NCBI GenBank assembly: GCA_016124645.1
Contig: WGNE01000031.1
Coordinates: 59,557 to 123,556, forward strand
DNA: 64,000 nt
DNA from: Alphaproteobacteria bacterium
Lineage (GTDB): Bacteria > Pseudomonadota > Alphaproteobacteria > Micavibrionales > UBA2020
Reading direction: 5' to 3'
This document shows, piece after piece, positions 28,123 to 35,787 of the stretch (positions are counted from its first letter, which is position 1; every line of letters begins with the position of its first letter). The notes under the pieces are model-generated. The model had not been told where the DNA came from, did not search any database, and saw only the letters and a program-made list of their open reading frames with translations. The position numbers and the translations under genes are program-made.

Positions 28123-29262
<1,140 letters not shown>

Positions 29263-29400
29263 TTACTGCTTGGCCTTCATGCGCGGGTTTTCCTTGTTGA
29301 TGACGTAAAGGCGCATCTTGCCCTTGCCGTCACGGCGGCGGACGATTTTGTTGTTTTTATCGCGGCTTTTCAGCGATTTAAGTGACGAGGTCTTTTTCAT
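29263..29400 (-). CDS. rpmJ: 50S ribosomal protein L36 (cysteine-free, alphaproteobacterial-type variant)
   Basis: [45 protein letters not shown] matches the L36 pattern (SLKS.K.R...N..VRRRGR.YVINK.NPR.KA.Q) with a short insertion. The ORF-track ORF is longer; the internal ATG at 29400 is used. Confidence 0.75.
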
Positions 29401-29754
29401 GATATCGATTCCATATGTCTGCAAGTCGTTGCTTTCAATGAAGCAGTGCAAACTACTGATTTTTTTAATTTTAGTCAACCATCATCTGACGGTTTCTGAC
29501 AATTATCCGCCCCGGCGCCCCCGGAGGGTCCCGCGGCCCGAAAAACCGCGGGCGCGAAGGTGATTCTCCGGCCGGTGATTCTTCATGCGCCTTCATACCC
29601 TAAAAGTGACATAAAAGGAAAGACATCGGTTTATCTTGTAACAAAATTACGCTTACATATGTTGCAGAGCAGTATAATTATCTTTTAACGCAAGATATGA
29701 TAATTTTAAACTTATGAAAAAAATTGCTTGCATTCACCCGTTTTTATGTTACTT

Positions 29755-29936
29755 CTTGCGTGCTTAGTTGTTGAGCCGGGGGTTTCAATCCGCACACAAC
29801 TGGTCTTACGACCTATCTCACTACAGCCCGCCTATAAGCAAAAAAAGGGCTCAACACCAAACTCTCGGCGACGAGAGGGTATAAAAGAATAAAAAACAAA
29901 ACGACCCCGCTCTTTTCGAAGGCGGGGTCGTTTTTC
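29755..29936 (+). ncRNA. candidate structured leader / small RNA ending in an intrinsic terminator (family unknown)
   Basis: Non-coding stretch downstream of an AT-rich promoter-like region. Long-range stem GTTGAGCC (29768-75) / GGCTCAAC (29848-55). Hairpin CTCTCG-GCGA-CGAGAG (29862-77, GNRA loop). Terminator at 29902-29936. The 5' end is not defined. Confidence 0.3.
29902..29936. terminator. rho-independent terminator (functional-looking on both strands)
   Basis: CGACCCCGC ... GCGGGGTCG stem. T5 on the plus strand, TTTTGTTTTTT on the minus strand. Confidence 0.65.
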
Positions 29937-30003
29937 TGTAACCATCCGCGCCGCGCCCCCGAACACCCCCCCGTCCGTACCACCTTCATAAAAGGAGAAC
30001 GAC

Positions 30004-30162
30004 ATGGCACAGACGCAACTGATGGAGAAAGCCGGTTCCTGCTGCAAGGGCTTCGACGCCGCGGCGGACCGGGATGCCGTGAAACCGCTGCCCTTCGCGA
30101 TCGTACCGAAGGCGCCGGTGCCCGAGCATCTCATCTGTCCCTGCTACCGGCCGAAACGTTAA
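30004..30162 (+). CDS. unannotated 52-aa cysteine-pair small protein (MAQTQLMEKAGSCCKGFDAAADRDAVKPLPFAIVPKAPVPEHLICPCYRPKR)
   Basis: Below the 60-aa ORF-track cutoff. AAAGGAGAA RBS 6 nt upstream of the ATG. GC3-rich codons. Its own strong plus-strand terminator at 30182-30218. Confidence 0.5.
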   Translation: MAQTQLMEKAGSCCKGFDAAADRDAVKPLPFAIVPKAPVPEHLICPCYRPKR

Positions 30163-30181
30163 GCTTCGCCCGCAAGCAAGA

Positions 30182-30218
30182 AGCCCTGCATCGCCGATAA
30201 GCGGTGCAGGGCTTTTTT
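30182..30218 (+). terminator. rho-independent terminator after the sORF
   Basis: AGCCCTGCA ... TGCAGGGCT stem followed by T6. Confidence 0.65.
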
Positions 30219-30233
30219 CGTTTGCGGGTTTCG

Positions 30234-31250
30234 TTACGCGGCGGATTTCACCACGAAGGTCGCGCGCTTGGAAAGCTCCTTGAGCTTGGACGCGCCGACG
30301 TAGGTGCAGGCGGAGCGCAACCCGCCCAGGATTTCCTGCACGGTGTCCTTCACGTCGCCCTTGTATTCCACCTTGACCACCCGGCCTTCGGAAGCGCGGT
30401 GGGGCGCGACGCCGCCCGCGTATTTGTCCATCGCGACCTTGGAGGACATGCCGTAGTATTCGACCAGCCCGTCGTCGCTGTCCTTGATCTCCTTCAGCTC
30501 GTCCGCGGACATGCATTCGGTATGGCCGGCCAGCATGCCGCCCAGCATCACGAAATCCGCACCGGCGGCGAAGGCTTTCGCCACGTCGCCCGGCATGCGG
30601 CAGCCGCCGTCCGCGCAGATGAGGCCGGAAAGACCGTGCGCCGCGTCCGCGCATTCGATGATGGCGGAAAGCTGCGGATAGCCGATGCCCGTCATCGCCC
30701 GCGTCATGCAGGCGGAACCGGGGCCGATGCCGACCTTCACGATGTCCGCGCCCGCGAGGATCAGCGCCTCGGTCATGTCGGGCGTGGCGACGTTGCCGGC
30801 CATGATGATCTTGCCCGGGTGGTGCTTGCGCACGTCGCGGATGAAATCGACGAAGTTCTCGGTATAGCCGTTGGCGACGTCGAGGCAGATCTTGTTGATC
30901 GAGTTGCTTTGCAGCGTGTTGAGCACGTTGTCTATTTTATTGATATCGTCGATGCCGAAGGTGACGAAGGAGAACGCGCCCGAGATATTGGCCTTCTGCA
31001 TCTCGTCCAGCGGGTAGTGCTTGTGCAGGGCGGTGAACATGTCGTGCTCGGCCAGCGCCGCGCCCATCTTGAGCGTGCCCACGGTATCCATGTTGGCGGC
31101 GATGATCGGCACGCCGGTGATATCGACGCCCGCGTGCGGGGTCTTGAAGGTGCGCGACAGCTCCACGTCGCCGCGCGATTTCAGGCGCGAGCGCTTGGGG
31201 CGGATGAGGACGTCGTTGAAGTCCAGCTTGCGTTCGGTCTCGATTCTCAT
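30234..31250 (-). CDS. guaC: GMP reductase
   Basis: [24 protein letters not shown]...[21 protein letters not shown]-reductase TIM barrel. Length about 338 aa. Confidence 0.9.
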
Positions 31251-31900: not shown

Positions 31901-33226
31901 TTATTTCCCGATGCAGAAATCGCGGAAGATCTTGTCCAGCAATTCCTCGACATGCACTTTTCCCGTGATGCGGCCAAGCGCGCGCAGGGCGAGGCGCATG
32001 TCTTCCGCCGCCAGCTCCGGCAGGGCCGCTTCCTTCGCGCGTTCCAGCGCGGCGGCGGCTTCCTCGAGCGCGAGACGGTGACGCTCGCGCGTGAGCGCGG
32101 GCCCCGCGTTTTCGCGCGCGCCGAACAGCGCGGCGGTTTTTTGCCCGAGCATTTTCAGCAATTCGTCCATGCCCGCGCCCGTGCGCGAGGACAGTGCGAG
32201 GCTCCCCGAAATTTTTCCAGGCGGGTTTTTCGCAAGGTCCGACTTGGTAAAGACGGCGATGGTGTTTTCATCCACCAGCGAAAGCGTTTCCGCGTCGCGT
32301 TCCGCCAGCGTCGCATCGAACAGGGCAAGGCGGATATCCGCCTTTTCCGCGACCGCCTGCGCGCGGCGGATGCCTTCCGCCTCGATGCTGTCGCCCGTGG
32401 CGCGCAGCCCCGCGGTATCGGCGAGGATGACGGGATAGCCCGCAAGGTCGAGATGCACCTCGATCACGTCGCGCGTGGTGCCCGCCTGTTCGGAGACGAT
32501 GGCGGCCTCGCGCGCGGCCAGCGCGTTGAGCAGGCTGGACTTGCCCGCGTTGGGCGCGCCGATGATGGCGATGAGGATGCCGTCGCGCAATCTTTCCCCG
32601 CGCCGCGCGTCGTTCAGGTGCGCGCGGATTTCCTGCAGCAATTCTTCCAGCGGCGCGGAAAGCGTGTCGGCCAGCCCCTGCGGCAGGTCTTCGTCCGGGA
32701 ACTCGATCTCCGCTTCCTGATGGGCGAGCAGGCCGGAAAGCCGGTCCGTCCAGCCTTGGTAAAGCTTTTCCAGCGCGCCGCCCAATTGGTTCAAGGCCTG
32801 CAACCGCTGCGCCTCCGTCTCCGCCGCGACGAGGTCGGCGACGGCTTCGGCGGCGGTGAGATCGAGCTTGCCGTTCTCGAAGGCGCGCTTGGTGAACTCG
32901 CCCGGCTCGGCCATGCGGCAGTTCTCGAATTTCCCGAGCGCGCGCAACATGCCGTCGATGACCGCGCGGCCGCCGTGCAGGTGGTATTCCACCACGTCCT
33001 CGCCGGTGAAGCTGGCGGGGGCTTTGAAGTAAACCGCGATGCCGTGGTCGAGCACGGCGGATGTTTCGGGATCGCGCAGGGTATGAAGCCGCGCCTGCCT
33101 TGGCGGGAAATCTTTCTTGCCGGTCAGCGCTTCGAGCGTTTGCAGGGCTTCGGGGCCGGAGATGCGCACGACCGCCACGCCCGCGCGATAGGAACCTGAC
33201 GCCAGCGCGAAGACCGTCCGCGTCAT
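31901..33226 (-). CDS. mnmE: tRNA modification GTPase MnmE
   Basis: GAPNAGKSSLLNAL, TTRD, DTAGLR and the C-terminal FCIGK motif. The start overlaps the upstream stop (TGATG). Confidence 0.95.
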   Translation of the reverse strand: MTRTVFALASGSYRAGVAVVRISGPEALQTLEALTGKKDFPPRQARLHTLRDPETSAVLDHGIAVYFKAPASFTGEDVVEYHLHGGRAVIDGMLRALGKFENCRMAEPGEFTKRAFENGKLDLTAAEAVADLVAAETEAQRLQALNQLGGALEKLYQGWTDRLSGLLAHQEAEIEFPDEDLPQGLADTLSAPLEELLQEIRAHLNDARRGERLRDGILIAIIGAPNAGKSSLLNALAAREAAIVSEQAGTTRDVIEVHLDLAGYPVILADTAGLRATGDSIEAEGIRRAQAVAEKADIRLALFDATLAERDAETLSLVDENTIAVFTKSDLAKNPPGKISGSLALSSRTGAGMDELLKMLGQKTAALFGARENAGPALTRERHRLALEEAAAALERAKEAALPELAAEDMRLALRALGRITGKVHVEELLDKIFRDFCIGK

Positions 33227-33627
33227 CAGCCGGCTTTCGTGTCGGATGCCGCTTGCGAAGACCTGCCCTGCTTTTGCGCTTCGGTCAGTTCCGTCTGGCC
33301 TTTTTTCAGCTGCAGGCGCGTCACGATATCGCCGCCCTTGATGTGCTTCTCAAGAATTTCGTCCACGTCCTCGCGCGTGGCGATGCTGTACCACACGCCT
33401 TCGGGATAGACGACGACGGTCGGGCCCAGCTCGCAGCGGTCGAGGCAGCCGGCGTTGTTGACCCGCGTGCCCTCCAGCCCCATTTCCTTCGCGCGCACCT
33501 TCATATAGTTGCGCAGGGCGTCCGCGCCCTTTTCCTTGCAGCAGCCGCGCGGATGCCCGGCGGGGCGCTCGTTGCTGCAGCAAAAGATATGATGGGTGAA
33601 GTGGAGGTCTTGCTCGTCGGTGCTCAT
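33226..33627 (-). CDS. thioredoxin-like [2Fe-2S] ferredoxin
   Basis: HIFCCSNERP..HPRGCC...GCLDRCELGPTVVVYPEGVWY pattern. Confidence 0.8.
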   Translation of the reverse strand: MSTDEQDLHFTHHIFCCSNERPAGHPRGCCKEKGADALRNYMKVRAKEMGLEGTRVNNAGCLDRCELGPTVVVYPEGVWYSIATREDVDEILEKHIKGGDIVTRLQLKKGQTELTEAQKQGRSSQAASDTKAG

Positions 33628-33687
33628 TTGTCATCGCCCGCTTGATTGTTTACGGTTAAGGTAGTGAAAAGGAAAGAAACGGGCAAG

Positions 33688-35787
<2,100 letters not shown>

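Follow-up and report, generated by a model that had tools for sequence, protein, structure and literature searches.

What is encoded in the interval between rpmJ and guaC in an alphaproteobacterium of the order Micavibrionales? We analyzed a stretch of 64,000 nucleotides of contig WGNE01000031.1 (hereafter, the window), for which an original prediction, made from the sequence alone, had placed an unannotated gene for a small protein behind a structured, terminator-containing leader in this interval. We find that the interval contains two separate genes, one for a conserved small RNA (sRNA) and the other for a protein of 52 amino acids (aa), neither of which has been described before; both are new families of familiar kinds. 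The overall explanation that we favor, and consider probable, is that the two genes are arranged head to tail as independent transcription units and that the second one encodes a thiol- or metal-reactive mini-protein expressed from a promoter of the ECF16 type. The gap between rpmJ and guaC measures 833 bp and not the 600 bp originally given, a value that fits the distance from rpmJ to the open reading frame (ORF) of the small protein. That this is the largest non-coding gap of the window is plausible because the interval at 44.8-45.9 kb, which seems larger, is occupied by an ORF resembling ferrochelatase.

The sRNA gene

The relationship between the RNA and the ORF is apparent from their distribution. 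Among Micavibrio-like bacteria, at least 19 genomes contain the RNA beside rpmJ, and in six or more of them (loci L012, L013, L015, L016, L020 and L027) the ORF is missing and a different gene or the 3' end of guaC follows the RNA; in the first five of these loci, the DNA 3' of the RNA terminator diverges completely. The ORF, in turn, occurs without the RNA in L044 and L051. Because each of the two occurs in loci that lack the other, and because a conserved ECF16-type promoter separates them, the "leader" is a gene in its own right, encoding an sRNA independent of the ORF, with a promoter and a terminator of its own. The sRNA most likely acts in trans. In one further locus (L019:7640-7740, minus strand), the ORF has been deleted from between its ECF16-type promoter, which is still present, and its terminator, of which the 3' half is left; the sRNA is also retained. 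Compared with the near-identical L018, this deletion is a recent loss.

By blastn, the region 29650-29935 is conserved in relatives at 70-74% identity, and conservation in the alignment covers the promoter region, the terminator and, between them, a body of ~175 nt. A covariance model (R1) built from 10 copies detects 19 full-length copies at 63-198 bits (the window and 18 other loci), plus two truncated ones; the window copy scores 141 bits (E = 1e-32). The long-range stem, GNRA hairpin and intrinsic terminator of the original description were all recovered, the terminator hairpin appearing in both the minimum free energy and the centroid folds; the U-run ends ~58 nt before the ribosome-binding site of the small-protein gene, compared to the about 65 nt reported for the terminator. 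In the 19-copy alignment, 90.5% of the cells are paired, as against 38-54% with slid partners, and eight pairs (32 cells) are changed on both sides, with a covariation score that none of 500 shuffles reached; these values carry the caveat that the alignment was fitted to the model. Stem P1b is invariant across the copies (GGGGG with CCC(A/G)CC), and the P2 hairpin varies compensatorily (CCUUC/GAAGG vs CUCUC/GAGAG). The loop core, with the consensus GGGGUUUC(A/U)AUCCGCACACAA, is nearly invariant; of all parts of the sRNA, it would be the likeliest to serve as a seed or to bind a protein. Nothing else in the window matches the reverse complement of this loop. Pairing of the sRNA with the 5' untranslated region (UTR) of the adjacent ORF was considered and rejected: in RNAduplex predictions for five genomes, it is no better than in shuffled controls.

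The Rfam search proposed along with the original prediction yielded no matches at the gathering threshold in the whole window or in five homologous loci; in E-value mode, only terminator look-alikes (Thr_leader, LhrC) were detected within 29200-30400, and ARAGORN reported no tRNA or tmRNA. Taken with the compensatory changes, for which a search had likewise been suggested, and with the promoter, the terminator and the persistence without the ORF, these results favor the independent sRNA that had been offered as a fallback interpretation.

The sRNA is preceded by a predicted sigma70-type promoter with an extended -10 element (TG at 29747-29748, within TGnTACTTC at 29747-55), and its transcription start is predicted at ~29762. 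The promoter geometry is conserved in all lineages, namely TTG(C/A)TT-N16-18-TA(Y)A(A/C)N, often with TG, followed 7 nt on by (G)CTTAG; a strict consensus promoter scanner did not flag it. Farther upstream are AT-rich blocks (29638-29723) that are conserved across the Micavibrio-like loci, with a 21-mer found once in the window vs 0 expected; these probably serve as UP elements or operators. L039 contains a tandem duplication of ~46 bp that covers the GCAGTATAAT block and the greater part of the ATAATT... block. A 17-codon ORF in the sRNA promoter region (ATG at 29714, MKKIACIHPFLCYFLRA) was rejected as a gene candidate, given that neither its frame nor its length is conserved and that by-eye translation in L015 yields MKK followed by a stop. 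In L038 (3190-3290) and L014 (3640-3810, minus strand), a common promoter-like block, TTGACATT...CATAAAAAGA, lies downstream of the ORF position and may mark another small transcript; this block is absent from the window.

Bacterial sRNAs that end in a terminator include the Hfq-associated class II sRNAs with A-rich (ARN) linkers. The new sRNA resembles RNAs of this kind in possessing its own promoter, two to three stem-loops, an A-rich single-stranded linker and a Rho-independent terminator with a U-tail, and in being conserved independently of its neighbors; it differs in the lack of an Rfam match. Riboswitch and attenuator leaders are similar in that a structured RNA with a terminator precedes a same-strand ORF, but here the RNA and the ORF occur separately, with a promoter between them. 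A literature search for sRNAs of Micavibrio-like bacteria returned nothing and was uninformative. The sRNA described here is new, conserved at the level of the order and apparently strongly promoted, in a clade of uncultured or predatory bacteria.

Table 1. Features of the rpmJ-guaC interval and the flanking genes (window coordinates)
Feature	Position	Strand	Basis or details
rpmJ, Cys-less L36	29263-29400	minus	flanking gene
Palindrome GTAACAAAATTAC, GTAAT-N3-ATTAC type	29638-29650	+	conserved AT-rich block
Block GCAGTATAAT	29669-29678	+	conserved AT-rich block
UP-element-like ATAATTTTAAACTTATGAAAAAAA	29700-29723	+	conserved AT-rich block
Predicted sigma70-type sRNA promoter	29728-29755	+	TTGCAT 29728-33, N16, TACTTC
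Novel sRNA, ~175 nt (~29762-29936)	29758-29937	+	covariance model R1
sRNA 5' single strand GCUUAG	5' end of sRNA	+	predicted fold
sRNA P1, long-range stem	29767-29777 with 29848-29858	+	predicted fold
sRNA P1b, GGGGG with GCCCGCC	29778-29782 with 29826-29832	+	predicted fold
Near-invariant sRNA loop core GGGGGUUUCAAUCCGCACACAAC	29778-29800	+	alignment
sRNA A-rich stretch	29836-29846	+	
sRNA P2, GNRA hairpin CUCUCG-GCGA-CGAGAG	29862-29877	+	-9.9 kcal/mol; then (ARN)-like A-rich linker
sRNA intrinsic terminator	29898-29934, U-run 29931-35	+	-24.8 kcal/mol, z = -5.8
Predicted ECF16 (SigF/NrsF-type) promoter	29938-29963	+	-35 (CT)GTAACC, 16-nt spacer, -10 CGAA
Shine-Dalgarno AAAGGAGAA	29991-29999	+	6 nt from GGAG to ATG
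52-aa soluble mini-protein gene, MAQTQLMEKAGSCCKGFDAAADRDAVKPLPFAIVPKAPVPEHLICPCYRPKR	30004-30162	+	homologues and codon-position pattern
Intrinsic terminator of the small-protein gene	30178-30217	+	-30 kcal/mol, z = -5.9, U-run
guaC, GMP-reductase/IMPDH-family gene	30234-31250	minus	flanking gene

The small-protein family

The ORF is a genuine conserved protein-coding gene. Across 15 loci compared, the third positions vary in all eight codons of the C-terminal motif described below, and the only changes at first and second positions are CGG/AGG (silent), I/V and K/R; this concentration of variation in third positions indicates translation under purifying selection. An ATG start and a GGAG-type ribosome-binding site are present in every homologue. 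The GC content at third codon positions of the ORF, 0.77, is within the range of the window genes (0.74-0.91). The ORF is followed, on the plus strand, by a terminator with a 17-bp hairpin and a U-run, which is located 17 nt from the guaC stop and may also serve the convergent guaC gene; a homologous hairpin lies downstream of the ORF in L037, and terminators are found 3' of most homologues. Our terminator scanner was blind to both terminators of the interval, whose loops and stems are beyond its limits. The elements of this gene listed in the original prediction, namely the reading frame with its length, the ribosome-binding site with its 6-nt spacing, the GC-rich third positions and the strong terminator, were thus found as described, and the conserved family together with the codon-position pattern shows that the gene is real.

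A search of 5.8 billion proteins with the single sequence returned the query itself as the sole match. Homologues were detected by tblastn, as the original prediction had suggested, in three of the 36 guaC-anchored loci that were fetched (L018, L024 and L026), and a metagenome scan added two more (L037 and L038). A profile of six sequences then retrieved 19 proteins, and a HMMER search over 1.84 billion cluster representatives yielded 14 clusters at E <= 1e-3, five of them new; that so few are represented there illustrates how ORFs below the length cutoff are lost from annotation. In total, the family comprises ~24 protein clusters with members of 33-52 aa, plus one mis-called at 68 aa. The latter public gene call (L050:2234-2440) runs over the sRNA terminator and the promoter motif, and the true start of this protein is probably at MTPAFN, 26 codons downstream of the called one. 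The only name that the sources give any member is "hypothetical protein".

Every member ends with the signature [IVM]-C-[P/S]-[C/S]-Y-R-P-[K/R] followed by 0-5 residues; almost invariably, this signature takes the form [IVM]CPCYRPK, and in the window protein it occupies residues 44-51. A phenylalanine (Phe17 in the window numbering) is also invariant. The residues that precede it differ among the members: CC in 7 (residues 13-14 of the window protein), CxxC in 11, a single Cys in 1 and no Cys in 5-6, so that two Cys pairs are present in 18 of the 24 members. The two cysteine pairs noticed in the original prediction differ in status: Cys-Pro-Cys (CPC) is the signature of the family, and the vicinal CC is not conserved as such, being CR in the nearest relative, CxxC in many members and absent in six. 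The middle region is a fast-evolving Pro/Ala-rich linker. The N-terminus is hydrophilic, without a Sec signal peptide. An AlphaFold2 model has a mean predicted local distance difference test score (pLDDT) of 66 and is mostly coil, with the C-terminal block alone reaching ~85. The mini-protein has no Pfam match at E <= 10, including PF10048 (BufA1), and no NCBIfam match; a profile search of the PDB produced only insignificant matches to C2H2 zinc fingers (E = 0.05-0.8), which arise from the N-terminal CxxC-x3-F.

The predicted ECF16 promoter, gene neighborhoods and competing explanations

Directly after the U-run of the sRNA, the window contains the motif CTGTAACC-N16-CGAA, the only such site in the 64 kb (0.04 expected by chance). 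Among the first 38 loci fetched (L001-L038, of which 37 total ~346 kb), the motif is found only before the ORF or before its remnant in L019. In all 13 lineages examined, the -35 element precedes the ATG by 58-83 nt; the spacers are 16 nt long, except for one of 15 nt in L044, and show no sequence relationship from one lineage to another. The motif is identical to the consensus that experiments established for ECF16 sigma factors: for Caulobacter SigF, it is GTAACC-N16-CGAA (PMC3511200); for group 16 and Bradyrhizobium japonicum EcfF, tGTAACc-N16-CGAA, with the start site 6 bp after the -10 element (PMC3420878), and for Brucella BcrS, (T/C)GTAAC-N17-CGAA (PMC8315932). Transcription of the small-protein gene is predicted to start at ~29969-29971, which would leave a 5' UTR of ~35 nt.

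The genomic contexts of the family members are of three types. In context A (L039-L043 and L046-L050, Micavibrio-like), mreB-rpmJ are oriented leftward, and the sRNA, the ECF16 motif and the ORF rightward, with membrane glycosyltransferase-like genes and finally guaC located 3' of the ORF. In context B (L044/L045), msrA-DUF1223 are followed by the ORF, genes for an extracytoplasmic function (ECF) sigma factor and for NrsF (PF06532), and BufA1-MNIO-HvfC_N-DoxX; GTAACC-N15/16-CGAA precedes msrA, the ORF and bufA1, and there is no sRNA. Context C (L051-L053) evidently belongs to another organism, with 49% GC; here, the gene for thioredoxin/AhpC is oriented leftward, and ECF sigma-NrsF, a DsbD_TM-thioredoxin fusion, the ORF, DUF305 and OEP-CzcB rightward, with TTGTAAC(C/T)-N16-CG(A/T)A before the genes for sigma and thioredoxin, dsbD and the ORF. 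ECF16 is distinguished by a gene for an NrsF-type anti-sigma factor that adjoins the gene for the sigma factor (PMC8315932), and SigF/NrsF control the copper-binding bufferins (PMC11626156). The neighbors in contexts B and C are classical SigF/EcfF/BcrS regulon genes, and for the family members in these contexts a recurrent physical association with sigF-nrsF is shown. A relative of L044 that was retrieved by an NrsF-anchored look-up, L054, has the same sigF-buf locus without the ORF; the ORF is therefore an accessory member of the regulon. In this sigF-nrsF-bufABCD locus of L054, msrB and msrA diverge from back-to-back ECF16 motifs (4903-4940), and the motif also precedes bufA1 (7640-7665), which illustrates the layout of the regulon in compact form.

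Compared with the known ECF16 regulons (Caulobacter SigF/NrsF, Bradyrhizobium EcfF/OsrA, Brucella BcrS/AbcS), the small-protein gene has an identical promoter architecture, (T)GTAACC-N16-CGAA, a location beside ECF sigma and NrsF in two contexts, and co-regulated neighbors such as MsrA/MsrB, BufA1-MNIO-DUF2063-DoxX and DsbD/thioredoxin; in the clade of the window, by contrast, it is detached from any sigma gene and lies beside rpmJ and the sRNA. A CPC protein of 34-52 aa is not among the regulon genes in the cited ECF16 literature. The bufferins (BufA1/DUF2282 and BufA2) are likewise small Cys-bearing products linked to the same sigma factor and to metal stress (PMC11626156). A bufferin, however, carries a Sec signal peptide, its folded core measures 60-70 aa and contains 4-6 Cys, and genes for MNIO and DUF2063 adjoin its own; none of these traits characterizes the mini-protein. 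MNIO/DUF2063 are nearby in L044, beside BufA1. Small metal proteins with Cys pairs (zinc knuckles or ribbons, metallothionein-like proteins, CXC copper sites) are similar to most members of the family in having two such pairs, but in the family four ligands are not universal, no fold is confidently predicted and no sequence family matches.

Alphaproteobacteria respond to reactive oxygen and chlorine species, Cr, Cd and Cu mainly through ECF16 (SigF/NrsF) systems. In the characterized species, SigF, EcfF or BcrS reads ECF16-type promoters after exposure to H2O2 or HOCl as oxidants, or to chromate, Cd or Cu as heavy metals, has released it from the membrane anti-sigma factor NrsF. Given this background, the mini-protein is most likely a cytoplasmic thiol- or metal-reactive protein induced by oxidant or heavy-metal stress. 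In the proposed mechanism, the same oxidants or heavy metals would release the ECF16 sigma factor from NrsF, and transcription would begin near 29970 and end at 30217, giving a monocistronic mRNA of ~250 nt from which the 52-aa peptide would be made upon such a signal. The product would be a soluble, largely disordered cytoplasmic peptide, constrained in the segment Cys-Pro-Cys-Tyr-Arg-Pro-Lys, and would work through the CPC thiols, usually together with CC/CxxC, either as a Cu(I)/Cd/Zn buffer or as an oxidant-reactive thiol buffer. It could thus be a cytoplasmic counterpart of the periplasmic defenses of the regulon (bufferins, MsrPQ/MsrA and Dsb/thioredoxins). The sRNA, with its own strong-looking sigma70 promoter and its own intrinsic terminator, would act separately from the ORF. 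The buffer biochemistry is the least certain step of this explanation; the metal-binding peptide of the original prediction is compatible with the context of an oxidant and heavy-metal regulon, and a link of the small protein to metal or redox stress is plausible.

To our knowledge, the known ECF16 outputs are almost all periplasmic or located in the envelope (MsrPQ, bufferins, Dsb/thioredoxins); a cytoplasmic CPC protein, if this explanation is true, would add a missing cytoplasmic component to the response. The same promoter type precedes the gene of the CPC mini-protein in three unrelated gene contexts, and the protein itself (34-52 aa) is small enough for direct synthesis and testing.

Among the competing explanations, a riboswitch or attenuator, in which the ~180-nt RNA and the ORF form one unit and the terminator of the RNA gates the ORF, draws on the collinearity of RNA, terminator and ORF on one strand, on their adjacency in every ORF-bearing Micavibrio-like locus and on a terminator strong enough to make control by read-through physically possible. 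This part of the original prediction is nevertheless highly improbable: the RNA with its promoter and terminator is kept in at least six genomes without a following ORF, the ORF lacks the RNA in L044 and L051, a conserved ECF16 promoter separates the terminator from the ribosome-binding site, and no Rfam family matches. It is also very unlikely that GTAACC-N16-CGAA is inactive in this genome and the ORF silent or expressed solely by read-through from the sRNA promoter. The window encodes no ECF16 sigma factor, and published genome-wide searches with such motifs yield some false positives (PMC8315932, PMC3420878); yet the position of the motif is conserved in 13 lineages in which the spacer and the flanks diverge, established regulon genes in L044 and L051 are preceded by this motif too, and it persists as a remnant beside the deletion in L019.

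Two further explanations concern the peptide itself. In the first, it would be the precursor of a ribosomally synthesized and post-translationally modified peptide (RiPP), with CPC cysteines that would be modified, for instance, by MNIO/DUF692-DUF2063, enzymes encoded in the ECF16 regulon, as in bufferins and methanobactin. The peptide is short and contains Cys, and its N-terminal part is variable and its C-terminal core fixed. MNIO enzymes act on cysteines (PMC11626156), and in L044, an MNIO-HvfC pair with a promoter of the same type is encoded three genes away. However, no modifying enzyme is encoded near the ORF in the window, where a RiPP-like precursor had been suggested, or in any of the Micavibrio-like loci, a separate BufA1 precursor is already encoded in L044, the context in L051 is devoid of MNIO, and the mini-protein has neither a Sec signal peptide nor a match to PF10048 (BufA1), all of which renders this explanation improbable. 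A docking or regulatory role remains a serious rival because only the first Cys and YRPK are universal. The C-terminal tail would then dock on a partner, for example, SigF, NrsF, an efflux pump or a protease, and tune the ECF16 response, in keeping with the confinement of conservation to an 8-residue tail of a disordered, fast-evolving peptide, with the replaceable second Cys and with the location directly beside sigF-nrsF in two contexts. We consider such an adaptor unlikely, given that most genomes place the gene beside rpmJ, far from any sigma gene, that retention of the second cysteine pair in 18 of 24 members suggests thiol chemistry, and that the partner is only postulated. There is, in addition, some small chance that the mini-protein is an active arm of ECF16 signaling and not a passive thiol, either as a new RiPP class, in the form of a leaderless cytoplasmic substrate for an enzyme that modifies cysteines, or in direct SigF-NrsF feedback; in Micavibrio-like predators, the sRNA would then be its partner, for example, a post-transcriptional brake on this stress response.

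Several observations weigh against the thiol- or metal-reactive, ECF16-driven mini-protein encoded next to an independent sRNA. The universal residues are the first Cys and YRPK only, one cluster having CPS and another CSC; since the second Cys is replaceable and the N-terminal pair is missing in 6 of 24 members, a fixed four-Cys metal site is not a requirement of the family. The structure model is of low confidence, and no fold is confidently predicted. There is no gene for an ECF sigma factor or NrsF in the 64-kb window, and the assignment of the ECF16 promoter is a match to a consensus with a predicted start site. The ORF is patchy and dispensable, having been lost in several sRNA-bearing genomes and being absent from the sigF locus of L054. 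Finally, the tight adjacency of the sRNA and the ORF in every ORF-bearing Micavibrio-like locus could reflect a functional link; inherited synteny is the simplest answer to its constancy in the clade.

Flanking genes and other observations

Ribosomal protein L36 without cysteines is usual in Alphaproteobacteria, and the Cys-less form encoded by rpmJ in the window is conserved in all 16 relatives that have rpmJ at this locus; a link of the locus to zinc and Zur through rpmJ was rejected on this ground. The DNA 5' of rpmJ (29401-29495, minus strand) is 80-85% identical in 16 relatives far past the coding sequence. It contains a sigma70-like promoter on the minus strand (TTGACT at 29478-29473, N17, TAGTTT at 29455-29450) and a conserved 5' UTR hairpin, the region of which may be an autoregulatory leader of L36. 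Between the rpmJ promoter and the regulatory blocks of the sRNA is a GC-rich, poorly conserved spacer (29500-29590) with a repeated GATTCT motif; the spacers of L012, L013, L015, L019 and L020 contain this motif as well but cannot otherwise be aligned.

Elsewhere in the window, four ORFs (944-1459, 1603-2205, 3910-4851 and 5069-6529) are ankyrin-repeat-like by eye; in the P0008 contig, rpmJ and the small-protein gene are separated by an insertion of two ankyrin genes (Pfam Ank). A 133-aa ORF (33226-33627, minus strand) with the motif HHIFCCSNERPAGHPRGCC resembles a thioredoxin-like [2Fe-2S] ferredoxin, a candidate assignment from the look of its sequence, and adjoins a 713-aa ORF (33646-35787).

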